Part shown: positions 82 through 16,247 of the stretch, piece by piece
Layout: every line of letters begins with the position of its first letter
Position numbering within the stretch: the stretch's first letter is position 1
Source: a virus
Length of the DNA stretch: 64,000 bases
Virus record (IMG/VR): IMGVR_UViG_3300031552_000001
Coordinates: 1 to 64,000 of that record
Direction: 5' to 3' (one strand)
Notes under the pieces: model-generated
What the model was told of the DNA's origin: nothing
Databases searched by the model: none
What the model saw: the letters and a program-made list of their open reading frames with translations, nothing else
Translations under genes and position numbers: made by a program

Positions 82-123
82 TATAAGAGAGGTGGACAAA
101 TTACTCTATTTTAGGAGGCGCAT

Positions 124-855
124 ATGGGGCGCGAGGTTAGACGAGTTCCTTTAAGTTTCAATTGGCCGCTAGAGGTTGTGTGGGGAGGGTATTTGAATCC
201 GTATGACCGATGTAACGTGGAATGTCAGGCATGTAGGGGTAGCGGATTAGGCCCTGAGATGAGGCAGCTTCAAGACGACTGGTATGATTTAGCGAACACC
301 GGGCGGAAGTGGAGTGACAAACTTACACAAGACGAGGTTGATGCACTTGTTGAATACAATAGACTACGGATCTTTGACTCTAAAAGCAATAAGTGGGTAT
401 CGGTACCGCGTACAGCAGAAGAGGTCAACAAACTTAGCGGACTACACCACGATGCAATAAACATGTCTATTTGTTTAGAGACAAGAGCCAAGCGACTTGG
501 CATTTACAAAATGTGCGACAAATGCGGTGGCGAAGGGGTAATTTGGACGTCGGCCGAAGACAAGGCAAAATACGAAAGCGGGAAAGCGTCAGACCCGCCG
601 GTTGGAGAGGGATGGCAGCTTTGGGAGACTGTAAGTGAGGGGTCTCCGATTACTCCAGTATTTGCGACCTCAGAAGAGCTTATTGACTACATGACAAAGC
701 CAGGGCCCGCAGGGAGGAGAAAGCCATGGGCAACTGGGTATTCTCGAGAAGAGGCTGAGGCTTTAGTGAAAGACGGGTGGTGTCCATCATTCACGGCTAC
801 CAAAGGAAAGGTCTACAATGGCGCAGAGGGAATGGTAGCTGCCGACAAGAAATAG
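124..855 (+). CDS. hypothetical phage protein with two DnaJ-type CxxCxGxG zinc-finger motifs
   Basis: 243-aa ORF with AGGAGG SD; motifs CQACRGSG and CDKCGGEG. Confidence 0.75.
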   Translation: MGREVRRVPLSFNWPLEVVWGGYLNPYDRCNVECQACRGSGLGPEMRQLQDDWYDLANTGRKWSDKLTQDEVDALVEYNRLRIFDSKSNKWVSVPRTAEEVNKLSGLHHDAINMSICLETRAKRLGIYKMCDKCGGEGVIWTSAEDKAKYESGKASDPPVGEGWQLWETVSEGSPITPVFATSEELIDYMTKPGPAGRRKPWATGYSREEAEALVKDGWCPSFTATKGKVYNGAEGMVAADKK

Positions 856-866
856 AGGGCATAGAA

Positions 867-1109
867 GTGAAAGCAGAACCTTTCAACCCGTGGCTTTTGG
901 TGGTGTCTAAGGGGTGGAGGAGAAGAGAGTTTGTGCGCACAGTGGCAACTGCGTGTGAGAGGGAGGCGGGGAAGGAGCACGGGAAAGTGGTCGTTGTTGA
1001 CTGCCCTACGCAGGAGATGGCAGACGAATTTCTGCACTTGTACAAAGATCTTTATCCAGAGTTACCGGAACCTGAAATTCAACTCGGTGGAAGCGAGCAG
1101 GAGAATTGA
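867..1109 (+). CDS. hypothetical protein
   Basis: In-frame GTG of ORF 777-1109 after GAGGG; follows the previous gene. Confidence 0.45.
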   Translation: MKAEPFNPWLLVVSKGWRRREFVRTVATACEREAGKEHGKVVVVDCPTQEMADEFLHLYKDLYPELPEPEIQLGGSEQEN

Positions 1110-1114
1110 GAAAG

Positions 1115-1160
1115 CTCCTGGATGGCAAGGGGGGCTGAAGCCCCCCTTGCCATCCAGGAG
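1115..1160. repeat. 21-bp perfect palindrome with 4-nt loop (terminator/processing hairpin candidate)
   Basis: CTCCTGGATGGCAAGGGGGGC-TGAA-GCCCCCCTTGCCATCCAGGAG just after a stop codon. Confidence 0.8.
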
Positions 1161-1405
1161 AAACCAAATGCCCCCTCCGCTATAAGAATCTTATTACAGC
1201 CGGAGGGGAATAGTGCAGCAACGTCATGCAACTGCATGATATTACTAATGAAACGTCGATTTTCGCAAGAGGGCATTAGGGGAAATTCGCAACATCGGCA
1301 ACGGCATTTGAGGTGTTTTTTCCGTAATTCTTCTTGGTAACCGCATGCGGTTTTGCAGCGAGATAGCCTTGTGGCTGCGAAACCCTACTGTCCGCACAGT
1401 GAGGA

Positions 1406-1807
1406 GTGATGCCGATGAGTGATGCGAAGTACAGTATTCAATTAAACATACACGACGAGCCGGTAATCATGACGCCCGAATCTAAGGTGCTTCCTGGGCT
1501 TGTTGACGCGAAGAACAAACTTAACCAACAGCTCAACGAAATCAGGCGCTTGAAGAAGGAAATAAGGGAGCTCACTGAGAAAGACAAAAGAAGAAAGCGA
1601 GAGGACTACCCCTTAGACATGGAGATGCCGACCATATGCGTCTCGTGCGGTTCGTGGTTCGACTTAGACCAGGGGAAGCCGTGTTATGAATGCAATATAG
1701 TGTATTGTGACAACTGCGCTTCGTATAGCAGGGATAGTTCGTGGATATGCAAGCGATGCGCCCGGTGGAAACGTGAAGCACGACGCAAAAACAGCAATAA
1801 GAGCTGA
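1406..1807 (+). CDS. coiled-coil plus Cys-rich zinc-finger protein
   Basis: GAGGAG SD; CVSC...CYEC...CDNC...CKRC. Confidence 0.7.
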   Translation: MMPMSDAKYSIQLNIHDEPVIMTPESKVLPGLVDAKNKLNQQLNEIRRLKKEIRELTEKDKRRKREDYPLDMEMPTICVSCGSWFDLDQGKPCYECNIVYCDNCASYSRDSSWICKRCARWKREARRKNSNKS

Positions 1808-1896
1808 AGGGAGCTTTAGCTTAGGAATGCCAAGAGAGGGTGTTCACATCAAGTACTCGTAATTTGTGTAATGTCTATTGGACTGGAGGTTGCCTG

Positions 1897-2619
1897 ATGA
1901 CGAATAAGCCAGATTGCTACAAGTGTAAACACCGAAGAGGTACTCAATGGGGCCATCACTCATCGTGCGTTAACGGCAAAGCGTATGTGAAGGGTAACGC
2001 GCATGGTATACGCAACGGCTGGTTTTTATGGCCGATCAACTTTGACCCAGTTTGGCTTGATTCGTGTGATGGGTTCGATCTCGCCGACGCCAGCGAGAGC
2101 GTTCCGACAACGAAAGAGAAAAGAAAAGCGAAACGCAATGACAACAGACTGAGGAGCGATAAGAAAGAGCGCTCACGATGCGGACTGCGAATTAAAAGCA
2201 CCCATAAGCGAAATACCGAAGGCGATTTGTCTAAGGAGGTGGACAATGGCGGTCCTGTGAATCGCACTGAAGAGGAACTGTCACTGGGACAGTATTTAGG
2301 TTCCATACGCATCGCTAGGAACCTAACTTTACGCGCGGTAGAAAGGGCTACTCAGCGAGAGGTTTCTAATGCCTATCTCAGCCAACTTGAGCATGGCTTC
2401 ATTAAGAAGCCCTCACCTAACATCCTCTACAGCCTTGCAGAGGTCTACGAGGTGCCGTACGAGACGCTTATGGAGAAAGCGGGCTACCTAACTCGAAAGG
2501 CAGAACAGAAGTGTGAGCAGAAGCGTAAGTCTATACTTGCACTCGACAATACGTCCCTGACTCGAGAGGAAGAGGAAAAGCTACTTCTTTACCTAGCCTT
2601 CCTACGTTTCCGGAAGTAG
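1897..2619 (+). CDS. XRE-family HTH regulator, fused in frame to a small Cys/His N-terminal domain (possible independent start at GTG 2257)
   Basis: LGQYLGSIRIARNLTLRAVE...SNAYLSQLEHG...PSPNILYSLAEVYEV is a typical Cro/CI-type HTH; GGAGGT SD before 1897. Confidence 0.85.
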   Translation: MTNKPDCYKCKHRRGTQWGHHSSCVNGKAYVKGNAHGIRNGWFLWPINFDPVWLDSCDGFDLADASESVPTTKEKRKAKRNDNRLRSDKKERSRCGLRIKSTHKRNTEGDLSKEVDNGGPVNRTEEELSLGQYLGSIRIARNLTLRAVERATQREVSNAYLSQLEHGFIKKPSPNILYSLAEVYEVPYETLMEKAGYLTRKAEQKCEQKRKSILALDNTSLTREEEEKLLLYLAFLRFRK

Positions 2620-2626
2620 GGGATCA

Positions 2627-3612
2627 ATCTTTAGAGCACTAAGAATGAGTGCTTACCTGACTGTCATGTACATTTGAGGTGTTAAACAAGTGCACCTACA
2701 CAAACCGCAAAACTTAGAGTGCTAGTTTAGAGCACTCGCATATCTCGCCAAAAGTTAGAACTTAGGGTGCCAGTTAAGAGCACTCGCAAGGCGCTCAATC
2801 ATAGGGGCTTTGCTCCTACACACCACAAAACGACGCACATACCTTTCGGTAATTGAAATAAGAGCTCTGACCGCAGGTAATCTTTAGGGCGTTAAGAAAG
2901 AACGCTTACACAACGTGAGTTATGACAATAGTAGGCCTCAAAGAGACACAAATGAAAGGAACTTAGAGTGCTAGTTAAGAACACTCGCCAGGTGACGAAA
3001 TCTAATGTTAGGTGCGTCAATCAAGAGCGCGCACGTCCTGCAGGTGATCGTCTTTGGGGCACTAAATAAGAGCGCCCACAAAAGAAGGCCGGCCTATAGT
3101 CTGCGTTTTCAGAAGCTTATGGTTCATCTTTGGAGTGTTAAGTGAGGGCACTCACAAGAGGTGCATCGGTTATTCTTTGGGGGGTTAAGTAAGGGCCTCC
3201 ACTTCGCATCTTGAAGACTAACTTTGGGAAGCTACGTACGAGTTTCCACACCACACCATCGAAATGCTAAGAAATAGCACTCACGTTTCATAGTAATTAA
3301 ATAGGATAAACCGGCGCGAACGACATTTGAAGAGGCAATAAAGGCCTCTTACCCGTAGCAAAGGCCCTGTTTGCAGAACAGCAACAAAGAGTTCTGACCC
3401 ATTCTGGGTCTGTGGGCCCATATAAAGAATTGAGAACAGTAGTAATATTTGAAGGGCCGAAATAAGGGTTCTTATACGACAACTCGAATTGTGTTTGGAG
3501 TGTTAAACAAGAGCACTCACAGCTTGCGTACGACTTGTATTTGGAGTGCTAAATAAGAGCACTCACAAGACGTAAAAGTTAGAACTTAGAGTACCAGTTT
3601 AGAGCGCTCGCA
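2627..3612 (+). ncRNA. array of about 18 degenerate hairpin units (consensus YHTTTG-GAGTGCT-AANNAAG-AGCACTC-AC), candidate structured ncRNA
   Basis: No long ORF; stems start at 2634, 2677, 2717, 2765, 2887, 2966, 3012, 3057, 3133, 3180, 3227, 3262, 3330, 3374, 3452, 3498, 3544, 3589; substitutions mostly keep pairing via G.U on the + strand. Confidence 0.75.
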
Positions 3613-3687
3613 CGGAAAAGCATTCACACGGAGCTCGATCACGATAAAGGAACTTCGCTCATAGAGACTTAGAAAAAGGAGAAGAGT

Positions 3688-4188
3688 GTGGAATTCGAAC
3701 TTTTAAAAGCGAAAAGCCGCCCGCCGGACACTACTGGGAGGTATTTCATTGGAGAGAAGTGCGCCTACTTTTCAAATGGAGTCGTATGGCTGAACTGCCT
3801 AATAGACTACGTGGACTCCGACAACGAACTGGTTATTCAAATAAACGGAGAACGGCCGCATCCGCAACATTGGCTATCTTATGTATTAGAGGACTGTTCA
3901 CTAGAGGAGCTGGCAGAATTTGAGGGTATAGGAGAGCAGTTCGAGTGGATGATGCGTAATGGAGTTGTTCCGTACCAAGCCTTTTTGTTGAAGCTGGAGT
4001 TTTATGCAGGCCCCAATGACGATGGCTGGGAAGTGACCTATAGCATAAAAGATAGAGAGCCTATAAGCGATAGCGAAGCGTCTAAAGCCATACTGGAGCT
4101 TCTCCTAGACAGAACGAGGGCCCTATGGGCCGACAGAAGTGCCGTCGTCGACATCTTCATGGCCGACTGCGGGGTAATTATACAGTAG
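3688..4188 (+). CDS. hypothetical protein
   Basis: 166-aa ORF with AGGAG SD. Confidence 0.65.
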   Translation: MEFELLKAKSRPPDTTGRYFIGEKCAYFSNGVVWLNCLIDYVDSDNELVIQINGERPHPQHWLSYVLEDCSLEELAEFEGIGEQFEWMMRNGVVPYQAFLLKLEFYAGPNDDGWEVTYSIKDREPISDSEASKAILELLLDRTRALWADRSAVVDIFMADCGVIIQ

Positions 4189-4285
4189 GGTTAAGGTATT
4201 AAACCTCAAGGCACAACCCCTTCAGTCCTTAGATAAATAGTAACAAGACGCTAGGTACCTTTTAACGTGCCGGAAAGGGGGATGT

Positions 4286-4498
4286 ATGAAAAACGCTGAT
4301 GAGATGAAGGAACTGTTGATGAGGTTAGGCGCCTCTTCTGTCTTCCTTACTAATACAAGTATGCCAACAGCAGCAAAAACTGTAGGTTTATTATGCTGGT
4401 TAAGGAGAACAAGAGAGAACAACGACACTAAAGAGCTAAGGCGCCAATTGCTATTCCTTCACATAACTGGGGGTTTTGACTACGAGGAGAGAAAGTGA
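4286..4498 (+). CDS. hypothetical protein
   Basis: 70-aa ORF, GGGGG SD, GTGA overlap with next gene. Confidence 0.5.
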   Translation: MKNADEMKELLMRLGASSVFLTNTSMPTAAKTVGLLCWLRRTRENNDTKELRRQLLFLHITGGFDYEERK

Positions 4499-5202
4499 AG
4501 CGAAAAAACACGTACCTCACGGTGGATTTAGACTACTGGGATGTTGCAAGGAGTCCATGTGCCAGGGGTGTAGTTAAGAGGGTGCTCGATTTGAACATCC
4601 CTACTTCTCTATTCTTAGACCATCACTTGGTGCTTCGTGATTTTAGTGGAAGAAGCGCCGAGTTTTCAAAACTTATTAACGTAGATCAACACGATGACCT
4701 GGCCGGAGATACGGCAGATCCACTGAATGAGGCGAATTGGGTTAATTATGTTCCCTTTCGCAAAAACGCGGTCTACGAATGGCGCTTTCCAAGGGAAGAG
4801 TTTGCATGCTGTGACGGACATGACGGAGGCTTTACGTGGTACTTGAATAGGAGATTTAGGGGGGCGTATAGCAGGGCTTTTCATCGGGATCATCGCTTAT
4901 CCGTTTGTGGGTGGAAGGAGATTAGACGCGTAGAAGGGCTTAGTAGGATTAACTACACGAAAATTGCTAAGGCGTCGTTCGTTTTGAGCCCCGCTTATGT
5001 GTCAGTAGAGAAGATACGACCCGCCTTGATGCTACTTGCTGAAGCTAAAGGCGACGTGACATGCTCGAAATACGTAAAGTCCGCTCTCAATCGTTTATTG
5101 AACGGGAGTCCAACACTATTTAAGCGCAGCATGTTATCTTACAGAAAAAGAGCTGACCCTAGTTGCAAGTGCGGCAGAGGGCAAAACTGGGCTAGTCAGT
5201 AG
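4495..5202 (+). CDS. UPF0489-like / arginase-deacetylase-fold putative metallohydrolase
   Basis: Motifs TVDLDYW, DHH, INVDQHDD, LNEANWV. Confidence 0.55.
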   Translation: MKRKNTYLTVDLDYWDVARSPCARGVVKRVLDLNIPTSLFLDHHLVLRDFSGRSAEFSKLINVDQHDDLAGDTADPLNEANWVNYVPFRKNAVYEWRFPREEFACCDGHDGGFTWYLNRRFRGAYSRAFHRDHRLSVCGWKEIRRVEGLSRINYTKIAKASFVLSPAYVSVEKIRPALMLLAEAKGDVTCSKYVKSALNRLLNGSPTLFKRSMLSYRKRADPSCKCGRGQNWASQ

Positions 5203-5267
5203 GAGTGTTGGCGGGACTATCTAAGAGTTCCGACGTGTTTCCCATGAGAACGAAATAGGAGAGGAGT

Positions 5268-5474
5268 ATGGAATTCAAGGATGACGATGAGAAGGTGCTG
5301 AAAAACATCGAAAAGGAAATCAAGGGCGCTATAGCGCGCATCCTTACAAAACATGGGGATGCAGGGGCGCACTGGCAAGTGGAGGCTCTTCCAGAAAAGA
5401 TGGCTAGGGCTTCAATGTACATTTTGCGTGTTACCTCTGATGCCGTGGACGATGCAAAGAACAGCAGGCTATAA
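5268..5474 (+). CDS. hypothetical protein
   Basis: 68-aa ORF with GAGGAG SD. Confidence 0.6.
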   Translation: MEFKDDDEKVLKNIEKEIKGAIARILTKHGDAGAHWQVEALPEKMARASMYILRVTSDAVDDAKNSRL

Positions 5475-5499
5475 GAGGTTTGTTGAAAGGAGCGGTTTC

Positions 5500-5871
5500 A
5501 TGCTTGAAACGATCTTTTGTCTGCTATTCGGGTGGCATTGCCCGTCTGGGCCCGTGCTAGAAGCTTCAGACCCTACTGTGAACTCTGGGATCTATCAAGA
5601 CGAAGCAGGGCTTTACTGCTTTGTGGCGGATGGGGAAACAGTTGGGTGCTTTGCCTGCACGCTAACTACAGGGCACAGCAGGGAAGAATGTGCTTACGCA
5701 ATGGCTGAAATGGCCAATAAAGCTGGAATGGTGGCTAGTGTGTGCATAAGACGCAAACAGAAACCTGCGCGCGCGATCTCTGGTAACTGTAAGTGCTCCA
5801 ACGGGAAAGAAGAGTGCGTAGAAGTACACGTAATAAACGCTGTTGTCCAGAAGTTGCGTTTCGAGAAGTAA
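5500..5871 (+). CDS. hypothetical Cys-rich protein
   Basis: In-frame ATG of ORF 5353-5871 after AAGGAG. Confidence 0.55.
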   Translation: MLETIFCLLFGWHCPSGPVLEASDPTVNSGIYQDEAGLYCFVADGETVGCFACTLTTGHSREECAYAMAEMANKAGMVASVCIRRKQKPARAISGNCKCSNGKEECVEVHVINAVVQKLRFEK

Positions 5872-5882
5872 AGGAGACGATT

Positions 5883-6221
5883 ATGGGAATAAACGTAGAC
5901 TCTACACGAGAGAATCAAACTGATACGCATTTATACGTTTGCTCAGAGTGCGGCTGCCCGGAAGTGGAAGAGAGCGTGTGGGTGGATATAAACACAGGTA
6001 AGGAAACTGAGGAAGACTCGCCTTTAGGTTATTACTGGTGCCCTAATTGTGAGGCAAATGTAAAAAGAGTGTGCTTGGTTAATACAAAAACTGGGGAATG
6101 CCTAGACCATGAAGGCCACAACGTTAAGCCCAACTTTAACTGGAAGCAAAGCAATGAAAAAGAATCCCGGCCCGAGGAAGGTGAAGCAGCTTGCGAGAAA
6201 CATCGCAGCGTGTTGGGTTGA
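5883..6221 (+). CDS. small zinc-ribbon protein
   Basis: AAGGAG SD; CSECG...YWCPNCE. Confidence 0.6.
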   Translation: MGINVDSTRENQTDTHLYVCSECGCPEVEESVWVDINTGKETEEDSPLGYYWCPNCEANVKRVCLVNTKTGECLDHEGHNVKPNFNWKQSNEKESRPEEGEAACEKHRSVLG

Positions 6222-6415
6222 GTAGGCCCTAGATGGTGGAGGCTTGGAGGACTCTCTCGCCGCAAGAGGATTTGATGAAGAGGAGATAGGGCTACAGGTA
6301 GAGGAGGAGTTGAAGCGTCTCATTGAACGTATGACCTGCGGGAGTCAACGACAGAGAAGAAGGCAGTGAGCGCCGTAAGAGAAGCTCCAATGTGGAAACA
6401 TGAAATGAGGCACGT

Positions 6416-6820
6416 ATGAAAAAGCCAACAACGCACGTTGTTGCGACGGGTATTATTGTCCTTGCGTACATCGCATTTGTTTTCGTTATCTCGATACAAC
6501 TCGACACAATTACCGACCAGCTGGGAAAGCTTCAGCCTAGCATCTATGCGACAAATGGTAGAGCTCAATGGAAGCCTATTGAACCCATACCGGATACCAG
6601 TAATTTTAACAAAATGTACTCCGATTTTTACTACATCGACGCAGGTCGTGTGGTAATGAAGCTGCGAAGTCTGAACGAGGGAAAACCGGGTAAGGTAGTC
6701 GAGATTCGGCGAAGCGATGACGTTCTTTTAGGGTACGTGGTGATGTTTGAAGACGGGACGAGTGTGCTCATGGAAAGCTTTGATCACAGGTACTGGCAGG
6801 ACAGCAAGAGTAGTAACTAG
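6416..6820 (+). CDS. N-terminally membrane-anchored hypothetical protein
   Basis: Hydrophobic VVATGIIVLAYIAFVFVISI; GAGG SD. Confidence 0.6.
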   Translation: MKKPTTHVVATGIIVLAYIAFVFVISIQLDTITDQLGKLQPSIYATNGRAQWKPIEPIPDTSNFNKMYSDFYYIDAGRVVMKLRSLNEGKPGKVVEIRRSDDVLLGYVVMFEDGTSVLMESFDHRYWQDSKSSN

Positions 6821-6912
6821 AGGTATCGCCAAAAGTAGATAATCAATGAGGCGTTTCAGCCTCAAAACATCACCAATAACTTTTACACTTCACGCTCTCA
6901 AGGAGAGGTAGT

Positions 6913-7311
6913 ATGCGTGTGGCTCGTATGAAATTATCTCGCGTTGATAAAGATATGTTCAGACAGTTGTATTCCCTGAACAAGCGCCGCTACGGCGAGA
7001 TGCGAGATATGCTGATTAAAGAAAGAACAAATAAAACGGCTTATGTGTATCTGATTTTTGACGAGAAGGACAAGCGAAGGGTAATTGCTTGGGCTATTAG
7101 TGCGTGCAAACACCAGCGCTCTTGTCCAGTAGGTATGTTTTGGGTTCGTCGCTCGCATCGTCGTCAAGGATTCGGGAAAAAACTACTGACCGCAATCGAT
7201 CTAGATTCTAAACGTAGATGCCGTAAATGGTACTACTACGACCATGACTACCGATCGTGTGAGTTTTTTTCACACACGTCGAGGGGCAAGAGCATAGACA
7301 CTCGGAGGTGA
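6913..7311 (+). CDS. GNAT-family acetyltransferase
   Basis: Acetyl-CoA binding motif A: FWVRRSHRRQGFGKKLL. Confidence 0.7.
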   Translation: MRVARMKLSRVDKDMFRQLYSLNKRRYGEMRDMLIKERTNKTAYVYLIFDEKDKRRVIAWAISACKHQRSCPVGMFWVRRSHRRQGFGKKLLTAIDLDSKRRCRKWYYYDHDYRSCEFFSHTSRGKSIDTRR

Positions 7312-7317
7312 ATCCTG

Positions 7318-7776
7318 ATGAGCACTACGCCCGAAAAAAGAAAGTTTGAGGTTGGTGATGTCGTTGCGAAGTTTGAGTACAACTGGGAGCTTGTTATCAG
7401 AAAGGTCGTCAAATCTTTTAAGAGGTACGTGGTGCTTTCTGACGGGTCAAAATACTCGCACGGCGGCCATGAATGCCACAGCGGCTATATAAGTTCGTAC
7501 ATTACTATAGCATCGCCAGAGCACCTCGAGGCGTTCAGGAAAAAGCTTAAATGGGGGAAGATAGAAAAGAAATTCAACGAATTGAAAGGACGAAGAGGCG
7601 AAATGGAAATGGGCGTCCTTAATTCTTTGCTCCAAACTTTAGAGAATATTTCTAACCAGGTTGCCGCACAGGGCGGCAGGTGGGGTCAGCGTCGAAAAAC
7701 GCATATACATGGAAGCGGCACTGGCCCCACTTCACACAACAGGAGCCAAAGGAACAAAAAACATGGCACAGCATGA
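7318..7776 (+). CDS. hypothetical protein
   Basis: 152-aa ORF, GGAGGT SD. Confidence 0.55.
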   Translation: MSTTPEKRKFEVGDVVAKFEYNWELVIRKVVKSFKRYVVLSDGSKYSHGGHECHSGYISSYITIASPEHLEAFRKKLKWGKIEKKFNELKGRRGEMEMGVLNSLLQTLENISNQVAAQGGRWGQRRKTHIHGSGTGPTSHNRSQRNKKHGTA

Positions 7777-8077
7777 ACTGAAGCTATGGCCTGCGCCATT
7801 TGATGCCGTTGATAGAAATGAGAAGCGGTTCGAATATCGCAGAGATGATAGAGGCTTTGAGGTCGGTGATGTTCTCTTATTGCGTTGTTGGGATCCAGCA
7901 GCCAGTGTCTACACAGGACGAACTCTAAAGAGGCGCGTGACCTATATTGCTCGCGGGCCCATGTTCGATATCCCATTAGGCTACTGTATTATGTCAATTG
8001 AGCCGGAGGAAGAATGGCTAATTTTGATGAGGAACGATTCCCGAAGTGGGGGAAGTAAAGAGCAAATGGAAAAGTAA
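7763..8077 (+). CDS. ASCH/DUF3850-like (PUA fold) protein
   Basis: HELKLWPAPFDAV...KRFEYRRDDRGFEVGDVLLLRCW. Confidence 0.8.
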   Translation: MAQHELKLWPAPFDAVDRNEKRFEYRRDDRGFEVGDVLLLRCWDPAASVYTGRTLKRRVTYIARGPMFDIPLGYCIMSIEPEEEWLILMRNDSRSGGSKEQMEK

Positions 8078-8105
8078 AAACCCAACTGTAAGGAGCAAGG
8101 AAATC

Positions 8106-8306
8106 ATGACTGCTGAAAAGATTATCAAGATTCGATGCGATATACACAAAACTAACAAGTGCTATAGTTATATAGAAGTTGACTCAGAGGAGGTGTATGA
8201 GGCCCGGCAAATCGCAGCTAAAGAAGGGTGGAAGCACGACGGTGAGTATAGAGATGCGTGTCCCGAGTGCGTGGAGTTTTTGAGAGGGGTAAAGGTTTGG
8301 TGGTAG
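8106..8306 (+). CDS. small zinc-binding protein
   Basis: RCD...C and DACPEC motifs; AAGGA SD. Confidence 0.5.
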   Translation: MTAEKIIKIRCDIHKTNKCYSYIEVDSEEVYEARQIAAKEGWKHDGEYRDACPECVEFLRGVKVWW

Positions 8307-8351
8307 GCGCAGTATGAACTCATAAACACGGCTATAAGGAACAAAGAAACC

Positions 8352-8633
8352 ATGACAGAACAAAACCAAAACGAAGAGTGCGCCGAGGCGACCACTGTGT
8401 CTTTCATAACCGCTAAAGAGGCAAGGAGAAGGTCACTAGAAAGCATCAGGAAAGATATAGCAACTATGATAGACGAGGCGATAGACGAGCGCGACTATAA
8501 CCCAGAAATAGTTATCCCTAACGTATTTGTGGCTGAGATAACAAGTGCCCTTGAGTCGCCTGCACTTGGATATTCTGTAAAAGTAACTCCGACTGACGAT
8601 GAAAGCAGCATTCTTAGCATACGCTGGTGGTAA
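8352..8633 (+). CDS. hypothetical protein
   Basis: 93-aa ORF ending LGYSV...LSIRWW. Confidence 0.55.
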   Translation: MTEQNQNEECAEATTVSFITAKEARRRSLESIRKDIATMIDEAIDERDYNPEIVIPNVFVAEITSALESPALGYSVKVTPTDDESSILSIRWW

Positions 8634-8824
8634 CTATTTGCCTAACAGTCACCGTATAGAATTACAGCACTGTAACTGTTCTGCGAGGTTCCTCAATAAT
8701 GAGGGCCTTGCAGAGCTATTAAAGCCCCGACAATTCGGACGCCACGTGGGCGTCGGGCGCACACGCATAATGCGTGACCAAGTCCGATCAACACGGGCAA
8801 AAGACCCGCGAAGGAGAAATCATT

Positions 8825-9817
8825 ATGTTGGTACACGTACACGTAGATCATGCAGAAGCAATGAAGGCCGGTAAAGTTAGTGCTGGATACTTCGGGGTTA
8901 CGCTCACCGAAAGCGACATAGCACAACTCTCGATCGATGAAAGAGAAGAGCTGGCGAAATCTGAAAACATCGGCATATCAGATCCACCGCATCACGCGAT
9001 CGGGAAGGCGGTAAAAATAGGGATGTTTGTCTACCAAGACATTCCGATCCCAGATTCATCGATATGGTCGATCAAGAAATCACTCCGCTACAGGATCGAG
9101 CTAAGAAATAAGCTCGAGCAAGAAGAAAAAGAAGACCAATTAAAGGTAAAGGTCCAGCACGAAAAACGGTGCGCTGACTCTCTGGATTTCGCGAAGAAGT
9201 TTCTCGCTGCGTCGATTGGCGAGCAAATGTCTAGAACGTACTTCGAAGACGACGCTGCGAGTATTAGAGATGGCAAGATTTTGATTCGCGACAGTGATTG
9301 CTCGGTGGATCTTCTCCCCGACGACATCCGAGACGAATACACGGCCGCGCTCGACGAAACCATAGCGCTGGTCGCAAAGAGGACAGAAGAGCGAGCTAGG
9401 AAGTACACCGAAAGAAAGATTGCGCTGGAAAATGCAGAGAGAGAAGCTAAGGAAAAATACAACGCTGAACGGGCCGCATGGATCGCGGATCACGGGAGCA
9501 AACGGCTAAAGATGTTAGCTGCAGAAGGTATCCGACACAATGCGACGTACATCGAGGAGCGCATGGCCATCGAGCGACCAGGGTGGGAGCGATATGTTGA
9601 CATCTGTGGGGTGCACAAAGAGATTCGTGACGCGACGGAGGAGCAGCTAGACGCACTCACACAGGCTCGCGTTACCGATCCCCTTGCATATCTCTGCTGG
9701 ATTGCAGATGGCGGCCATCTTGAAGGATGCGTCCATAACACAAAGTGTGAAGAATTCATTCCAGGGCCAGCTCTTGCTTCCAACTTCCTCAAAGACATGA
9801 TCATCAAACGGATCTGA
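8825..9817 (+). CDS. hypothetical coiled-coil protein
   Basis: Long ORF (from 8774); AAGGAG SD before ATG 8825. Confidence 0.65.
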   Translation: MLVHVHVDHAEAMKAGKVSAGYFGVTLTESDIAQLSIDEREELAKSENIGISDPPHHAIGKAVKIGMFVYQDIPIPDSSIWSIKKSLRYRIELRNKLEQEEKEDQLKVKVQHEKRCADSLDFAKKFLAASIGEQMSRTYFEDDAASIRDGKILIRDSDCSVDLLPDDIRDEYTAALDETIALVAKRTEERARKYTERKIALENAEREAKEKYNAERAAWIADHGSKRLKMLAAEGIRHNATYIEERMAIERPGWERYVDICGVHKEIRDATEEQLDALTQARVTDPLAYLCWIADGGHLEGCVHNTKCEEFIPGPALASNFLKDMIIKRI

Positions 9818-9965
9818 ACACTCCCATCAAGGGACTCAGCCACCAGACGATACAGTTCTGACAATTACCTCTATGGAAGTGCCATAAGAGTTATGTAGAA
9901 CTGCGATTTTATACATTGGCAGGTGTCATTAAGACGCCTGACGAAGTCAAACCAGGAGTAGGGCT

Positions 9966-10325
9966 GTGGACAACAAGGAAATGAGAGCATTCGTTAACAG
10001 CGTCTTGTCTTGTTTTTCTGAGGAAGAGCTTGAGGCCGCTATGAAGGAGACTGACGACGAAAAGAGGTTAGATTTTTTCGTCAAGGGAGTAAACGCGTGG
10101 GTCACTAAACGTCTACAGGCGCTATTTCCTTGGGTAGAGCGCGTTGAAGTAGATAAGGTTTCCGGTGCCATAACAGTAGAGCACTCTTATCCAGAAGGGG
10201 TGAATATATCCTCTTATGTACGAGAGATTCTAGGAGAAAAACTACCGCAGGGCATACCCGTAGATATACGAGACGTAAGAGTGGCATCGTCCCACTTGAG
10301 CGAAAAAGTTGAGGAGGTTCCATGA
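9966..10325 (+). CDS. hypothetical protein, translationally coupled to the Cas12m-like gene
   Basis: AGGAG SD; ATGA overlap at 10322-10325. Confidence 0.6.
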   Translation: MDNKEMRAFVNSVLSCFSEEELEAAMKETDDEKRLDFFVKGVNAWVTKRLQALFPWVERVEVDKVSGAITVEHSYPEGVNISSYVREILGEKLPQGIPVDIRDVRVASSHLSEKVEEVP

Positions 10326-11818
10326 AAAGGAAGACCAGCTCTTTACCTAGCCGGACATATCGGTACCATGTGCGCTTGGACCGAAATGATGAAGCTGTAT
10401 TCGACCGGATAGGTGCCCAATGCAAGGAGTACTACGCTGCGTTGGTGAACATAGAGAACCAAAGAAGAGCCGCTACAGAAGAGTTCCTCATCCTCAAGTA
10501 CCCGACCTTTGCTTCTTTGAGGGAGGAAATGAGCGAGTTAGAGAAAAGAGTCAAGGAAAAGGGAGTAAGAAAAGCCCTTTTCGAAGTAGGGAAGTCTTTC
10601 TCCAAAATGCTAAAAGAGCTGGTGGCCAAAGAAGCGGAGAGTCTGAAGAAGTTCACTGCGGAAGCGGTTAGACAGAAGAAGATTATAAGGGCTAGGCTTT
10701 CTGGAGAAGGACTACCCTGGGGCTCGTATAGCAAAGTAGAAATGGCTTTTTTCGCTGCGTGTAGGAAAGGCGGAGCATTAACGTGTCGCGAGAAGGAAAC
10801 GGGAGAGTCTATTGCTGTTCAAATTCAATGTACCAAACCATGCACGGTAGACGGGCTACGGTCTGACAGAAGAATACAGATTTCTACGCCGCCAACTTCC
10901 GTTTGGAGTCTTAGCTGGGGAGAAAGGAAAAGAGCAGCAAGGACAGTAGGTAAAATAAGAATAGGAACACAACGACCAGGTAGAGAGCCTGTGTGGTTTC
11001 ATTTCGCGGTTACCTACCACAGACCTTTACCTGAAGACGCCACCTTAAAGTGGGCGTGGATAGGGAGATCTCCGAGGCATGGAAGAAGCACCTATCGGCG
11101 CTGTGTAGATAATAAAGAACGCTGGCGTAAAAGATACGAGTACTACCTTTACTTAACAGTAGAGTCTTCAGCGTTCATTTCTCCACTCAGAGCCCCCACA
11201 GGAAAAACAGCGGCAATAGACGTAGACGTAGAGGTAGAGAGCCATAAGGACGGCCGCCTATCCATAGGGGAGCTTACAGATAGTAATGAAAGAAGAGAGT
11301 CGATCTTCTTCAGTGAGCACCTCCTGAATAGATTTCAGAAGTGTGATGAGTTGCAGTCCATTCGGGACAAAAACCACAATAGACTTGTAGAAGATCTACG
11401 AGAAGTCGAAGAACTGCTCACAGCAGGGTTCAGAAAGTACCTACTGGGAGAAGAACATAGAATAAGCCATCTTCATCACCTAATAACCTATGAAACTTTG
11501 GAGAATAAGGAGCTTTCTGAGAAGCTGCACAAGTGGGCAAAACAAGACCGCCATTTGAACGCATGGAAGTCTGAACAACGGGCTAAGACCCTAAGACAGA
11601 GAAGAGAAAAATGGCAGTTGCTGGCTATCGAGTTGGCAGACTACTACGACGAGATAACTATAAGCGCTCCCGCCTCACTGACCGTAAGAGGGCACTGGGA
11701 TGGTAACTTTCAAAAGAAGTGTGCCGCTGCTGGAGAGTTTATAGACGTTCTTTCCTACCAAGCGTCGAAGAGAGGCTGCAAGATAGTAAAGGTGAAAAAG
11801 AATGTCACTGAAGGGTAA
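10322..11818 (+). CDS. Cas12m (type V-M/V-U1)/TnpB-like RNA-guided DNA-binding protein, predicted nuclease-dead, lacking the C-terminal Zn finger and RuvC-III
   Basis: Colinear motifs recalled from Cas12m: YYAALVNIENQRR, LPWGSYSKV, SIAVQIQ, PVWFHFAVTYHRPLPEDA, RuvC-I AAIDVD, DELQSIRD, WAKQDRHL...RAKTLRQRREKW, RuvC-II region ITISA without Glu, AAAGEF. Confidence 0.7.
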   Translation: MKRKTSSLPSRTYRYHVRLDRNDEAVFDRIGAQCKEYYAALVNIENQRRAATEEFLILKYPTFASLREEMSELEKRVKEKGVRKALFEVGKSFSKMLKELVAKEAESLKKFTAEAVRQKKIIRARLSGEGLPWGSYSKVEMAFFAACRKGGALTCREKETGESIAVQIQCTKPCTVDGLRSDRRIQISTPPTSVWSLSWGERKRAARTVGKIRIGTQRPGREPVWFHFAVTYHRPLPEDATLKWAWIGRSPRHGRSTYRRCVDNKERWRKRYEYYLYLTVESSAFISPLRAPTGKTAAIDVDVEVESHKDGRLSIGELTDSNERRESIFFSEHLLNRFQKCDELQSIRDKNHNRLVEDLREVEELLTAGFRKYLLGEEHRISHLHHLITYETLENKELSEKLHKWAKQDRHLNAWKSEQRAKTLRQRREKWQLLAIELADYYDEITISAPASLTVRGHWDGNFQKKCAAAGEFIDVLSYQASKRGCKIVKVKKNVTEG

Positions 11819-12092
11819 ACTACAATGTTGGTGGAAGAGAAGTCACGTAATAACAGAAGATATGACCACACAATCGCCGGTTCTATGCAAACGATGTGGG
11901 GTGAAGATTTATTACAAAAAGGAAGTGGTGCACCTGTTGCTTAAAGGAAAGCAATCAGCATGTGGCCTCACTACGGACGCTCTTCTTTCATGGCCTAAAG
12001 GGCATTGCTGGGTCGGCAAGTCTCAATGGGGGTATACTGAAGGATGCCTGCAATGTCCAAAGTGTGAAGAAGTTTACCGTAGTTCTAAATGA
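11802..12092 (+). CDS. small Zn-finger protein; possibly the detached C-terminal Zn-finger module of the Cas12m-like protein
   Basis: 17-nt overlap with the upstream gene in the +1 frame; CWWKRSH...SPVLCKRCGVKIY. Confidence 0.55.
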   Translation: MSLKGKLQCWWKRSHVITEDMTTQSPVLCKRCGVKIYYKKEVVHLLLKGKQSACGLTTDALLSWPKGHCWVGKSQWGYTEGCLQCPKCEEVYRSSK

Positions 12093-12108
12093 CCAGACTC
12101 TCATTCGG

Positions 12109-12147
12109 AGGGGACTATATTAAACTCTACCTTTAATATAGTCCCCT
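12109..12147. terminator. 16-bp perfect hairpin after the Cas12m-like operon (terminator or RNA scaffold)
   Basis: AGGGGACTATATTAAA-CTCTACC-TTTAATATAGTCCCCT followed by TCTTT. Confidence 0.55.
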
Positions 12148-12233
12148 TCTTTGCGCCATACTAACCCTACGTTTAATAAGAGGGCGAAAGTTTGTGCACC
12201 TAAACACTAGACAAGTATTTCAGGAGGTGGAAA

Positions 12234-12836
12234 ATGTGTAAACGGGGGTCAAAGAGGGCACTTGAGATAAAAATCCCTAGCTATAGATCTCAAACCCACA
12301 AGGCTTACATACAGAAAATTAACGTAGATTCCTGCCTCTACTGGGTAGTGAAAGCCCTAAACGAAATAGGGGTAAATACTACATATTCATGCTGCGGCCA
12401 CGGTGAGGGGTTGGGAAAGATATCCCTAGAGGACGGGCGACATCTTCTAATAACACCCGATTCTCAAGCCGCAAAAGAAATGGAGATGGCTTACGCGCCT
12501 CGCTGTGCTAGCGACAAAAAGTTAAAGCCTTCAAAGAAACAGGGTAATGCTAGGCGAGGCGTGAAATCAAAATGGCAAGGCTTGCATTCCTACCGTTACT
12601 CCAAAAGTCCTCTTGAATTAAAATTTGCCAAAGCATGGCAAAGCTACAACGAGAAACCGCACTCTGAAGGAATGCTAGACGCTCTGTTGGAAAGAGGCAC
12701 ACTTCCAAACGACTCTCCCCCTCTCACTGCTAAAACGGCAGCCAATACTATTATCCAATGGCTGGGAAGCCAGGCGGGTCAAGGCTTCCTGAGAGATGTA
12801 ATGAACGAGCAGAAGGGCACCAATGAGTTACCCTAA
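12234..12836 (+). CDS. hypothetical protein
   Basis: AGGAGGT SD; TTYSCCGH motif. Confidence 0.6.
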   Translation: MCKRGSKRALEIKIPSYRSQTHKAYIQKINVDSCLYWVVKALNEIGVNTTYSCCGHGEGLGKISLEDGRHLLITPDSQAAKEMEMAYAPRCASDKKLKPSKKQGNARRGVKSKWQGLHSYRYSKSPLELKFAKAWQSYNEKPHSEGMLDALLERGTLPNDSPPLTAKTAANTIIQWLGSQAGQGFLRDVMNEQKGTNELP

Positions 12837-13572
12837 AAGAGATACACCGAATCTTCAAAATTGCCCTCCTCCAGTTACCGACAGTTCTGTAAGAGAATCA
12901 TTTGCAAAAGATAAGGTATTGGACCTGAATTACGAGACTGTTGAAGAAAGGCTTACCGCCATGTTCGAACTGAAAAGTGAACATGGTGGCAAAAGGATCG
13001 GATGTTGCGACAAAGAGCAATGGGAGTTCGGCGGGCATGTTACGCTTGGAAGGCTGTGGACTTCTATATTCGTTTGTCTGAGTTGTAAGAAGGTAGCGTT
13101 TGTGGTGCTTCTCAAAGAAGCCTTTTACCGCACAGAAGACATAGGGTACGGTCTAGCGCTGTTTGGAACAATCTATGAAGAAGGAAAGATACAATTCGAA
13201 CTAGGGTATCGTGCAGTAAGAGTGGCAAACGGAACATTAGAGCGTATTACTGTATCTGACATAGCCGCTTCTATGCTTCCCACTTTAAAAAATCATGTGG
13301 AAAGTGAGTTAGCATTAGGGCTTTTGCAGCTCATATCTAGAAGACAACTTCAGTTTTCTGATTTCTGTAATAGCCCTCTGTTCCCTCTAAGGGACCTAAA
13401 GACCAAATGCAAAGAATCTGGGTGCGACGGCGTAGTTGTCGTTTCCAGAGACCCTGCTAATCTCACGCTTAATGTAGATATGATTTACTGTATTAAATGC
13501 GGAAAGAGGTACGTCTTAGATACCCAAGGGTTGACAGGAAAGGAGCTCGAACAAAAGCTCTACGGATTATGA
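12823..13572 (+). CDS. hypothetical Cys-rich protein
   Basis: 249-aa ORF with CxxC pairs. Confidence 0.6.
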   Translation: MSYPKRDTPNLQNCPPPVTDSSVRESFAKDKVLDLNYETVEERLTAMFELKSEHGGKRIGCCDKEQWEFGGHVTLGRLWTSIFVCLSCKKVAFVVLLKEAFYRTEDIGYGLALFGTIYEEGKIQFELGYRAVRVANGTLERITVSDIAASMLPTLKNHVESELALGLLQLISRRQLQFSDFCNSPLFPLRDLKTKCKESGCDGVVVVSRDPANLTLNVDMIYCIKCGKRYVLDTQGLTGKELEQKLYGL

Positions 13573-13830
13573 CAAAATGAGATATTTTGTTGTTATAAGA
13601 ACTTAGGAAAAGAATGTCAGTATTCTCTAATCTGCACGTTAGGAAAAGCTGGCATTCTGTGTGGTGTAGATGGCAATGGGGTCCTCTACACAAAGGTCCC
13701 TCGGTCTTCCTCACGTAAGACCGGGGGACTTACTCCCGCCTCCCCATACTAGCTTGTCATCTAAAGATCTCAGATAGCTGATAGTTCATAACCACTTTCT
13801 GATGCCCTTAGATGGGCCAAGGAGAACCCC

Positions 13831-14493
13831 ATGCAGTACTGCCCCACACACCGTCCCCATTTCACTTGTGTAGAAGAAGAAAAAGCGTATTTCCAAGCAA
13901 TCATTGAAGAGATACTTTGTCACTGCGCCGAAAAGAATGTGCGCGTACCTGAGATGCCAATCAAGCATGATGGCACCGGATTGTGGATCCATGTAAGAGA
14001 CGTTATCGGGTACCTCAACGCTCTAGGAGGCAAAGACTTCACAAGCCATCTCAGGTCGCTTGATGAGCGAGCAAGGAAAAGCAAAGCCGCATGGGAGAAA
14101 TGGGCTACTGTCCATTCTTCCGCAACGGTGAGGCGAGAGATTGAGGATTGCGCCCCCATAAGCTGGTCCAAAGTCCATTCAGACTTTCTGAAATGGTTAT
14201 GTCCAGCCGGTGAAGGGCTATCCACAAGACAAATCTTTCCGGCACCTCGCAATCATGAAAGATGCTCTGTGTACGACAACTACACAATTGGACTTCACGG
14301 AGTAATCAAGGCTCTAGTATCCTGCGCAGAACTGCCAGAAGAAACAACTGCCTCTGTTTCCGAACCCGTCACCTTTTCTTGCGAAGAGGACGGGGGTGTT
14401 ATCAAAAGAATTGGTGTGCGCGTGGTTGTGAAAGCCCCCCACCTGCTCGAGAACCTGGAAGCGGCTTACGTGATTTTGAACAATAGGCGCTAA
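13831..14493 (+). CDS. hypothetical protein
   Basis: 220-aa ORF with AAGGAG SD. Confidence 0.6.
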   Translation: MQYCPTHRPHFTCVEEEKAYFQAIIEEILCHCAEKNVRVPEMPIKHDGTGLWIHVRDVIGYLNALGGKDFTSHLRSLDERARKSKAAWEKWATVHSSATVRREIEDCAPISWSKVHSDFLKWLCPAGEGLSTRQIFPAPRNHERCSVYDNYTIGLHGVIKALVSCAELPEETTASVSEPVTFSCEEDGGVIKRIGVRVVVKAPHLLENLEAAYVILNNRR

Positions 14494-14617
14494 ACAAGCG
14501 GCTCGGACAAAAGCACTAGAGCAGTCTAGTACCGTTCCTACATGCAACTCACACAGCTCACATTGCTTCTCGTTTCGGGAGGCTCTGCATTCGTGTGTGA
14601 ATTCAAGGAGAACTTAG

Positions 14618-15034
14618 ATGGCAGTTCACTCTTTTCAACCAAGCGTCGAAGCAGCTCGCAAGGCGGCCTTAGAAAAGGCGTTCAGACTGGAAAAGACAGG
14701 GTATCAAATCCGCCCAAGAGAATTGGACCTTCTTCACTATGACTCGTCAACAAACGAGTCGTACAAAATAATATGGGAGGAGAAAATAAAATACTCTGAG
14801 AAAGAAGAACGGCGGATAGGGGTGGAGGAAAAGAAAGCGAACGGTTCCGCTCAGTTTCGCGCCATTGCCACAACCTGTGACGAATGTGACGTGGACCCTG
14901 AGTGGCGTGTGCGGTCAGACTGGAAGCAAACCTACGAAGAAGCCCTCAAGTTCGCTCGCAGAGTCAGTGGAGAAGGGGAAGCCTACGCAAAGAAAAAAGG
15001 CTATACCACTCCGAAAGATTTGGTAGCTAAATAG
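14618..15034 (+). CDS. hypothetical protein
   Basis: 138-aa ORF with AAGGAG SD. Confidence 0.6.
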   Translation: MAVHSFQPSVEAARKAALEKAFRLEKTGYQIRPRELDLLHYDSSTNESYKIIWEEKIKYSEKEERRIGVEEKKANGSAQFRAIATTCDECDVDPEWRVRSDWKQTYEEALKFARRVSGEGEAYAKKKGYTTPKDLVAK

Positions 15035-15039
15035 GACAA

Positions 15040-15085
15040 ATAAACAAAGGCGTTGAAGGGTTAAACCCTCGGCGCTTTTGTTTAT
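15040..15085. terminator. bidirectional intrinsic terminator-like hairpin
   Basis: ATAAACAAAGGCGTTGAAGGGT-TAA-ACCCTCGGCGCTTTTGTTTAT right after a stop codon. Confidence 0.65.
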
Positions 15086-15236
15086 CTATCTACGGGTTAT
15101 TTGCAGCTAACGAAAGTACGAACTGTTCATACTTCCTTATATAAATTCTCTGGCCAAGAAGGTTTAAACGGGAAAAGCCTCTGTAGGAAACCCAGATACT
15201 TGTACGGCACAGAGAGCTCTACACAAAGGTATACCA

Positions 15237-15929
15237 ATGAAGCATCTTGATGAATTAAAACGGTTCTATCGTCAGCTAGACGGGAAAGTAAAATACACAC
15301 TCAAGAGGGAGAAAATAAAAATCTCATGTAAACCAAAGTGCAATCACTGCTGCTCTCTGCTAACTACCATCCATGCGTTAGAAGGTGTCTTCCTAGCGCG
15401 CGAAGTGCTGCGACGAAAGGATTGGTGGTCTATCGCTAAAAAGGCCAGAGTGGCCGCTGTAAAGGGAGAAGAGGTAGGGGCTAGCAGAAGAGAGTACTTC
15501 AACGCAGGTATTCCATGCCCTCTTCTCGGAGAAACAGGCCTTTGCAGCCTTTATCAAAGCAGGCCGGCTGCATGCCGGCTGCACATGGTAGTTTCTGAAC
15601 CAGACCTTTGTAGCCCATCTAACCAAAATGCAACAACATGCGCCGTAAACACCTCTACATACCTGGCATTGTTTCTGAAGAGATGTATCGAGATTTCTGG
15701 AATCGAGATGGTAGTAGCGCCTTTACCCCTCATGTTGTTGTTTTGTATGGAGAGAGGAGCAACAAAAGAAAATAGTAAGGAACTTCTACCGCTGATTGAA
15801 GGGCTGCCCACCCCCATTCAATGGGCTATGCGTGCCGCTTCCAATGACGATTGGGGGAAGGAGTTGAGTACGTCAGAGCAAAACGCTATGCGGGCAGCTT
15901 ACCTACAAGTATTCAAAGATGGGGTGTAG
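15237..15929 (+). CDS. YkgJ-family cysteine-cluster (Fe-S/Zn-chelating) protein
   Basis: CKPKCNHCC...CPLL...CSLYQSRPAACR. Confidence 0.85.
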   Translation: MKHLDELKRFYRQLDGKVKYTLKREKIKISCKPKCNHCCSLLTTIHALEGVFLAREVLRRKDWWSIAKKARVAAVKGEEVGASRREYFNAGIPCPLLGETGLCSLYQSRPAACRLHMVVSEPDLCSPSNQNATTCAVNTSTYLALFLKRCIEISGIEMVVAPLPLMLLFCMERGATKENSKELLPLIEGLPTPIQWAMRAASNDDWGKELSTSEQNAMRAAYLQVFKDGV

Positions 15930-15935
15930 CCTTTC

Positions 15936-16247
15936 CTAAAAATCAGACGGGTCGGGGCCGCGACCAGTAAGGTCTAGCAAAATCTCTAGAGCTAAGGCAC
16001 TAAGATCTGCGTAAGTAGCGTCTAGCCTTCCGTCTCTCCTCCATAAAGCTTTTACGGTAGGCGATAAAGACCGGCCGTCTTCTGAAGAAGGGCCGTCGTA
16101 CGTAAACGATAAGACACACTCGCTCAACGTTCCTTCTTTTGCGTGCTTCAGTGCAGCCTCTAGATATTCCACCATTTCTGGAGGAACCTTTTCTCCGGTA
16201 GGAAAGGGAACCACTTTTATAGATCCTTGTTTTTTGACCTTCTTCAT
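15936..16247 (-). CDS. hypothetical protein
   Basis: 103-aa ORF. Confidence 0.5.
   Translation of the reverse strand: MKKVKKQGSIKVVPFPTGEKVPPEMVEYLEAALKHAKEGTLSECVLSFTYDGPSSEDGRSLSPTVKALWRRDGRLDATYADLSALALEILLDLTGRGPDPSDF

Follow-up and report, generated by a model that had tools for sequence, protein, structure and literature searches.

All characterised Cas12m proteins, the effectors of type V-M CRISPR systems, bind DNA without cutting it, such that a dead nuclease is the normal state of the family (PMC11013384), and those that have been tested process their precursor CRISPR RNA (pre-crRNA) without RuvC. Among the TldR proteins, which are TnpB-like nuclease-dead repressors, members with a C-terminal truncation that removes the zinc finger and RuvC retain RNA-guided DNA binding in chromatin immunoprecipitation sequencing (10.1101/2023.11.30.569447). 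This work describes a shortened Cas12m of 498 amino acids (aa), encoded by a phage alongside a candidate array of 16 guide RNAs, which was compared with MmCas12m2, GoCas12m and PmCas12m (PMC10442227, PMC11013384, bioRxiv 10.64898/2026.03.26.714355). The window, the whole stretch of DNA analysed, comprises bases 1-64000 of the 192,137-bp IMG/VR virus record IMGVR_UViG_3300031552_000001, to which CheckV assigns a completeness of 100%, and matches to a major head protein and a phage-type helicase bear out its predicted phage origin. The interpretation we favour, which seems to us somewhat better than an even bet, is that this protein is a CRISPR RNA (crRNA)-guided DNA binder, with the hairpin units at 2626-3612 serving as hard-wired guides against targets in the host or in rival elements.

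The protein is encoded by the following gene:

10322-11818, + strand: gene of the 498-aa Cas12m-family protein, from the open reading frame (ORF) list.

This ORF is a true member of the Cas12m (type V-M) family, and not a TnpB. A phmmer search of all Protein Data Bank (PDB) chains returned a single match, to Cas12m (23vw_A, 577 aa; E 7.6e-10), aligning query residues 64-447 with chain positions 83-468, while Pfam and PHROGs searches of the ORF returned none. Exhaustive protein searching identified 1142 cluster representatives at E<=1e-3, the best of them only ~32% identical, and these relatives are typically 550-650 aa long with a C-terminal TnpB/Cas12f zinc-ribbon Pfam domain. A profile built from 96 relatives matches Cas12m, Cas12m2, GoCas12m (8pm4) and UnCas12m4a with E-values from 3e-182 to 2e-82, whereas TnpB and Cas12f chains match it only at ~420-575, the last ~150 positions, a part that is absent from the 498-aa protein. 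The AlphaFold2 model (predicted local distance difference test 89.7; predicted template modelling score 0.86) has Cas12m2/Cas12m as its best Foldseek matches (8hhl, E 6e-19; 8pm4, template modelling score 0.69), and VIA structural alignment places model residues 7-498 onto the Cas12m/Cas12m2 chain from position 1 to 547-560, with Z-scores of 20-21 over 421-464 residues against 16 for TnpB. Model, Foldseek and VIA together find the WED, helical REC ('roof' or sickle) and RuvC fold, with all five beta-strands of the RNase H core modelled. The original prediction had labelled the ORF Cas12m/TnpB-like from a series of Cas12m motifs, and had proposed a structural check: each motif is present in the translation, in a column conserved across 158 relatives (an alignment of 159 sequences, including the query); the WED/RuvC fold was found; and the Cas12m part of the label holds, whereas the TnpB part does not. 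No close relative of the gene was found in IMG/VR, JGI metagenomes or 15 billion proteins, and a FastTree of 125 family members puts the protein on a long branch (1.68), with its placement unsure.

The residues by which the protein can be compared with its family lie as follows:

11018-11032, + strand: HRPLP motif of the WED domain (H233-R234-P-L-P237), in family columns that are 84-100% conserved.
11225-11227, + strand: D302, the RuvC-I aspartate, kept; the next family motif, GWR, reads VEVE.
11663-11665, + strand: S448, at the RuvC-II glutamate column, within ITIS.
11732-11809, + strand: last 26 residues, matched by the Pfam TNB model (PF07282, 60 positions) at its positions 2-27 only, with 13.6 bits, below the cut-off.

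Within the HRPLP motif, the H233 and R234 columns are 96-100% conserved in the family. From its position in the family alignment and the likeness of the motif, rather than a residue-level alignment to Cas12m2, this pair is taken as the equivalent of Cas12m2 His269/Arg270, which read C(-1) and the G.A pair of the crRNA (PMC10442227). Conservation then falls away along the protein: the N-terminal (WED/REC) lobe keeps 67% of family-conserved columns, inside the family range; the RuvC region keeps 45%, with a lower value in only one of the 158 relatives; and the TNB/RuvC-III region keeps 7%. By these alignments the RuvC pocket is eroded, and the RNA/DNA-binding lobe kept. The RuvC triad has been reduced to D302 and S448, its third member having been lost with the C-terminus and the last RuvC helix, which carries the third carboxylate; in Cas12m all three triad positions are normally occupied (DED, HDD, NDD and similar), 104 of the 159 aligned sequences read DED, and 81% of relatives have Glu at the RuvC-II column. 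The CxxC..CxxC and DQDxNA columns, each ~90% conserved in the family, are absent, as the ORF ends first, just before the first CxxC in the alignment. The TNB zinc finger of the family, of CCCC or HCCC type, is inserted in RuvC. In Cas12m2 zinc is held by His549, Cys552, Cys569 and Cys572, and Asp579 is the third RuvC residue (PMC10442227). The end of the model aligns to Cas12m2 position ~547 and the zinc ligands run from His549, and therefore the protein stops exactly where the TNB domain begins. The earlier reading of a kept RuvC-I Asp, a RuvC-II Glu position reading ITISA, and an ORF ending before the zinc finger and RuvC-III was correct in each respect. Its description of the protein as 'nuclease-dead' is accurate in that the RuvC site is degraded, but names no special trait, this being the usual condition of characterised Cas12m (PMC11013384).

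The protein resembles Cas12m in being homologous over residues 1-498, in its WED, REC 'roof' and RuvC fold, and in its HRPLP motif; it differs from the 550-650 aa of other members in being 498 aa long, with no TNB domain or third carboxylate, a serine as the second, VEV in place of GWR, and a shorter 'roof'. It is a natural miniature Cas12m variant, rather than a plain family member, because the TNB zinc finger, the full triad and an adjacent canonical array are all missing.

The truncation before the TNB domain is taken as real. Its interpretation involves the gene that follows:

11802-12092, + strand: ORF2, 96 aa, Cys-rich (CxxC ... CxxCxxC), in the +1 frame with an AAGGTG ribosome site, overlapping the end of the Cas12m gene by 17 nt.

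ORF2 starts in the +1 frame just ahead of the stop, and the tblastn alignment of one homologue extends slightly beyond that stop, as might be expected if a frameshift from assembly or sequencing, or a read-through stop, had interrupted an otherwise full-length cas12m. However, the three forward frames after 11818 contain nothing like CxxC..CxxC..DQDxNA, the PF07282 match is confined to the first 27 model positions inside the ORF, and a terminator-like hairpin lies downstream at 12110, leaving such an artefact very improbable. ORF2 was also considered as a frameshifted or diverged TNB remnant, and rejected: against a profile covering the last 69 positions of the family its score is -0.2 bits, a value that falls among those of 2000 shuffles (median -1.3, 90th percentile 1.6), and no frame in a six-frame translation of the 192-kb genome encodes a TNB matching this profile. 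The same results bear on a split effector, in which ORF2 would act in trans as a zinc-binding module replacing the lost domain. The overlap with the gene end, the separate ribosome site and the paired CxxC and CxxCxxC motifs fit this idea, as does the by-eye resemblance of the ORF2 stretch VITEDMTTQSPVLCKRCG to the family's V.V..A.TT..C..CG; yet the C-terminal profile score is well within the shuffles, no frame elsewhere in the genome matches the profile, ORF2 has no homologue among 5.8 billion clusters, and it has no RuvC-III-like DxDxNA motif. We regard the split effector as improbable. A complex prediction for the 498-aa protein with ORF2 scored 0.00, which gives no verdict either way. We read ORF2 as a small protein unrelated to Cas12m, and give a partner role low odds.

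The second component of the system is an array of RNA hairpins, 6.7 kb upstream of the gene and on the same strand:

2626-3612, + strand: candidate crRNA array; 16 hairpin units within 1 kb of DNA that is free of genes.

A unit opens with yTTTG or CTTA, continues as a 7-bp stem whose two arms enclose a 7-nt loop (AAnnAAG), and closes with AC or GC. Ten tandem units are separated from the next by 12-20 nt, mostly 17-20 nt, giving start-to-start periods of ~40-48 nt, and five longer gaps measure 48-94 nt. The units are AT-rich, with a mean column identity of 70%, and all 16 differ in stem sequence. Despite this divergence, pairing is maintained: each of the seven stem pairs has changed on both sides, 93.8% of cells are paired, a level reached by 0 of 500 shuffles, and the pairing collapses when the partner is slid. 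The G.U pairs work only on the + strand, and therefore the units are RNA structures. Searched with a covariance model of the units, the whole genome yields the full set of 16 here, on the + strand alone, and otherwise just three weak extras, at 1817, 2146 and 5204. Counted from C(-1), which is a C in 15 of the 16 units, each has a purine at -24, a stem pairing -23..-17 with -9..-3, and a purine at -2; the flanking purines are G..A in ten units, A..G in four and A..A in two. In most units -28..-25 may also pair with the start of the loop as a pseudoknot of 3-4 bp, and each of its two inner positions can pair in 15 of the 16. Searches of IMG/VR and JGI metagenomes with unit patterns, exact or degenerate, had no matches, indicating no close relatives of the array in those collections, and an Rfam scan of 1-16000 returned only spurious miRNA matches.

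These features correspond to the crRNA of known Cas12m proteins. That of Cas12m2 has a G(-23).A(-2) pair, a helix of -22..-17 with -8..-3, C(-1), and a 17-bp heteroduplex (PMC10442227); in PmCas12m, -28..-26 pairs with -17..-15 and -23..-20 with -6..-3, and a repeat part of ~33 nt precedes a guide of ~17 nt. In solved Cas12m crRNAs, the stem ends at -3, and A(-2) and C(-1) follow. The repeats of viral cas12m loci can be written GCC-TG-stem6-GGC-N6-stem6-AC, with covariation in both helices, and 26 such repeats share the crRNA layout. The A..GC form of the flanks is also found in a bona fide viral repeat, at locus L053. A sequence-free descriptor of the layout purine-stem(6-7)-loop(7-9)-stem-purine-C picks up the arrays next to viral cas12m genes, and in this phage (384 kb over both strands) gives a single cluster, at 2569-3330. 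The 16 units match the Cas12m crRNA scaffold in architecture, spacing and guide length, which is real but indirect support for their candidacy as guides. This likeness is structural only, because sequence models do not cross-detect in either direction, and models of canonical repeats detect none of the units. Hence the suggestion that guides might come from 2627-3612 gains indirect support from crRNA architecture and guide length, without any detectable primary sequence shared with V-M repeats. The best match of a V-M repeat model run blind was a chance match in a coding region, at 18957 of locus L008; by eye, two unit-like hairpins are seen at 600-700 of locus L006, an anecdotal observation.

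Phage-encoded mimics of CRISPR repeats are known as RNA anti-CRISPRs, close copies of the host repeat that usually occur singly or in small number. The units are like these, and like solitary phage repeat units, in being phage-borne RNA structures resembling CRISPR repeats without cas1 or cas2; they differ in that there are 16 of them, mutually divergent, with a cognate effector gene in the same genome. A counter-defence role can accordingly be envisaged, in which the hairpins are decoys against a host V-M system, soaking up host Cas12m, while the truncated protein soaks up host crRNAs or occupies targets unproductively. The units do mimic the V-M scaffold architecture, and the protein keeps the crRNA-reading residues while parts of the nuclease (NUC) lobe are lost. 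Decoys would nevertheless be expected to be alike and close to the host repeat, whereas the 16 units are mutually divergent, and each is followed by a unique sequence of guide length. In addition, as binding alone suffices for Cas12m to act, truncation does not make the binder obviously defective. We consider counter-defence quite unlikely.

Comparison with other viral V-M loci places both components in context. Cas12m relatives were found on at least 43 IMG/VR viral contigs (L015-L057), most with an array directly after the gene and without nearby adaptation genes; Cas12m is therefore common in uncultivated viruses, and the description of one as the 'first Cas12m in a bacteriophage' (bioRxiv 10.64898/2026.09.14.751636) needs qualifying. 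Like these loci and MvCas12m of a myxophage, described in the same report, the 498-aa protein is a cas12m product on a viral contig without cas1, cas2 or cas4. The viral loci differ in having near-identical repeats directly after the gene, usually within ~150 nt of the stop. Some nevertheless have short-period or irregular arrays, as in L007, L028 and L004, the first two with periods of 46-54 nt. In the L007 contig, a 108-kb phage-like sequence, ~30 repeats (GCCyGCGAGGAGGCyTrGTrTCCTCGAC) lie beside protein P0007 at 7735-13462, in at least five mini-arrays between small ORFs, with periods of 46-50 and 65-74 nt, and a promoter-like TTCGTAGAAyTGGTATTCTGTGA occurs 19 times, ahead of many repeats. 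In L004, ~20 repeats follow P0004 at 11949-13637 with irregular 47-164 nt spacing and drifting 5' halves; this array is an intermediate between a regular array and the degenerate array of the window.

Loss of the zinc finger also has precedents, although nearly all viral Cas12m relatives keep both it and RuvC-III. P0040 (L060), of 524 aa, is without either and is followed by seven canonical repeats (L060:1787-2222), and the L053 relative, of 565 aa, likewise has neither and has two canonical repeats of the A..GC type just upstream (L053:4870-4979). These are candidate natural TNB-less effectors, and to judge from their loci TNB loss is compatible with arrays, which in both cases remain beside the gene. 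Forms without a zinc finger require at least four changes on a rough FastTree of 125 members, and some may be fragments. Many viral Cas12m relatives, among them the proteins of L019, L037, L039, L052, L053 and L055, end in a basic tail after the RuvC-III position (RFAKKHK, KWAKKH, FAARHKK), which the zinc-finger-less L053 protein keeps and the 498-aa protein does not have.

Relative to the TldRs (10.1101/2023.11.30.569447; PMC13418256), the protein is alike in being a relative of an RNA-guided nuclease with a decayed RuvC site and a C-terminal truncation removing the zinc finger and RuvC. It is also phage-borne, as some TldRs are, without adaptation genes and with fixed guides, which are putative in this case. 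It is unlike them in ancestry, as TldRs derive from TnpB and are guided by a single long omega-RNA-like RNA encoded beside the gene, whereas the 498-aa protein descends from Cas12m and would use many short crRNA-like guides. For an omega-RNA-like guide near the gene, there was no Rfam match in 1-16000, and 11818-12233 was not specifically searched for conserved structure beyond the terminator-like hairpin.

Multiple observations weigh against the pairing of protein and array as a guided DNA binder. Firstly, the array is 6.7 kb from the gene, with no unit near it, whereas roughly two-thirds to three-quarters of the loci of 47 relatives have an array immediately following the gene. Secondly, the units are mutually far more divergent than CRISPR repeats, and two of the tandem spacings are only 12 and 15 nt. 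Unlike a canonical CRISPR array, and unlike the adjacent identical ~36-nt repeats of Cas12m systems, they are AT-rich and only 70% identical by column, their stem pairs vary on both sides, and their periods are broken by the 48-94 nt gaps. Thirdly, a covariance model from 26 canonical viral V-M repeats misses the units even when run unfiltered, the converse search with a model of the units has no significant match in the loci of 40 relatives or when L006 is searched by itself, and the architectural likeness was judged after both structures had been seen. Fourthly, the RuvC lobe, which in Cas12m2 also holds the crRNA scaffold (PMC10442227), is the poorly conserved part of the 498-aa protein. 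Finally, no 12-nt seed match of the guides was found in the phage genome, meaning no target was identified there.

The distance, the lack of sequence-level likeness and the erosion of a crRNA-holding lobe would all be explained if gene and array were unrelated, the protein being a decaying or re-purposed relic of Cas12m, such as a guide-free nucleic-acid binder, and the array some other structured non-coding RNA: a sponge, a set of processing sites, or sites for a phage protein like the neighbouring helix-turn-helix (HTH) regulator. The gene in question borders the array:

1840-2619, + strand: 259-aa protein with an XRE-type HTH domain (HTH_3, E 5.6e-8), ending 7 nt before the hairpin array.

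This adjacency, and the weaker unit-like hairpins at gene ends at 1817 and 5204, are further points in favour of independence. Yet the 1.5-kb frame remains open, with a strong ribosome site, in an operon; conservation is selective, with decay confined to the nuclease pocket and the RNA/DNA-binding lobe and the His-Arg pair kept; the units, by their compensatory changes and G.U pairs, are an RNA structure and not a protein operator; and a rare gene family coincides in one genome with an array having that family's scaffold geometry and guide length. An unrelated gene and array is therefore an unlikely explanation, though one to be taken seriously.

Under the favoured interpretation of a crRNA-guided DNA binder, the protein would be made from its four-gene operon, and the gene-free 2626-3612 region, on the same strand, would be transcribed to a precursor with at least 16 units. 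Each unit would fold as a V-M scaffold, with a short pseudoknot, a stem closed by a purine-purine pair, and C(-1), followed by a unique guide of ~17-19 nt. The protein would then bind and trim each unit, Cas12m processing being independent of RuvC, and the resulting complexes would bind complementary DNA flanked by a protospacer adjacent motif (PAM), blocking transcription or replication without cutting. The guides look hard-wired, because there are no adaptation genes and the units have diverged by compensatory changes.

The targets of such complexes would most likely be host genes or competing mobile elements. With 17-nt guides and up to three mismatches, self-matches in the phage genome were at chance level, and the lack of self-targets argues against the earlier suggestion that the phage times its own genes in this way. 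One candidate was rejected: window 3353-3374, after the unit ending at 3352, matches genome 137190-137211 (+), inside an ORF, at 20 of 22 positions (rough p ~0.02), and is probably chance. This match has GTAA as its 'PAM', with no TTN/YTN motif, and extends 3 nt into the repeat.

The wider genome offers no conventional source of guides. Neither cas1, cas2 nor a Y1 transposase (TnpA) was found in the whole 192-kb genome, nor was a canonical CRISPR array by k-mer chain scan. Of the prediction that the window held no CRISPR array, cas1/2 or insertion sequence ends, the lack of cas1/2 and of a canonical array is borne out, with the qualification that the CRISPR-like hairpin array lies within it; the possibility it raised of a standard array outside the window supplying the guide found no counterpart in the full genome. 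The sole CRISPR-like spacing in the k-mer scan was a two-copy direct repeat of ~34 nt at genome (G000:C1) 177874/177931, outside the window. Its sequence, spanning 177874-177964, is GCGGTAGAATCACTCCAGTrcGTGmTGGTCGTT, with copies 57 nt apart in an ORF-dense stretch, probably inside an ORF.

The operon surrounding the cas12m gene comprises four co-oriented genes (8774-9817, 9966-10325, 10322-11818 and 11802-12092), of which it is the third, with a GAGGAGG ribosome site and an ATG that overlaps the TGA of the upstream gene (ATGA). Its remaining features are:

8774-10325, + strand: two upstream operon genes, of 347 aa and 119 aa, without family assignment, the second overlapping the Cas12m start.
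12110-12152, + strand: terminator-like end of the operon, a perfect 15-bp hairpin (GGGGACTATATTAAA / TTTAATATAGTCCCC) followed by TTCTTT, from direct reading of the sequence.

The hairpin at 12110 was seen by reading the sequence, and is not on the list from the consensus scan; a sigma-70 promoter scan gave no match above shuffles, and Pfam, PHROGs and PDB searches of the neighbouring ORFs yielded nothing informative. The C-terminal motif of ORF2, CW..G..EGC..KCEE, is seen again where the 347-aa protein ends (8774-9817; BLASTP E 4e-5), and at the DNA level window 12006-12071 and 9697-9760 share a 34-nt repeat, 79% identical, making a small Cys motif common within the operon. Upstream of the array, the gene at 1406-1807, before the HTH gene, encodes a Cys-rich, FYVE-like zinc-finger protein, and a weak unit-like hairpin (1817-1848) lies between it and the HTH gene.

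Taken further, this phage, which is large and probably lytic, could carry an analogue of TldR derived from Cas12: a zinc-finger-less Cas12m acting as a hard-wired, 16-guide CRISPR interference (CRISPRi) device, whose private scaffolds have drifted by compensatory change since only their shape and C(-1) are read, and which silences host defence or takeover targets, or rival mobile elements. We hold this fuller account tentatively, at a little short of an even chance; if true, it would be the smallest natural Cas12m-type DNA binder. Should protein and array cooperate, RNA-guided DNA binding could do without the TNB domain and a full RuvC site among Cas12 proteins as well as among TldRs, and compact tools for CRISPRi, base editing and epigenome work would gain a natural scaffold of 498 aa. 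Such cooperation would also show the evolution of an adaptation-free array with fixed guides, in which repeats diverge while their shape is kept, and would add a further case of phage guide RNAs used offensively or for regulation.

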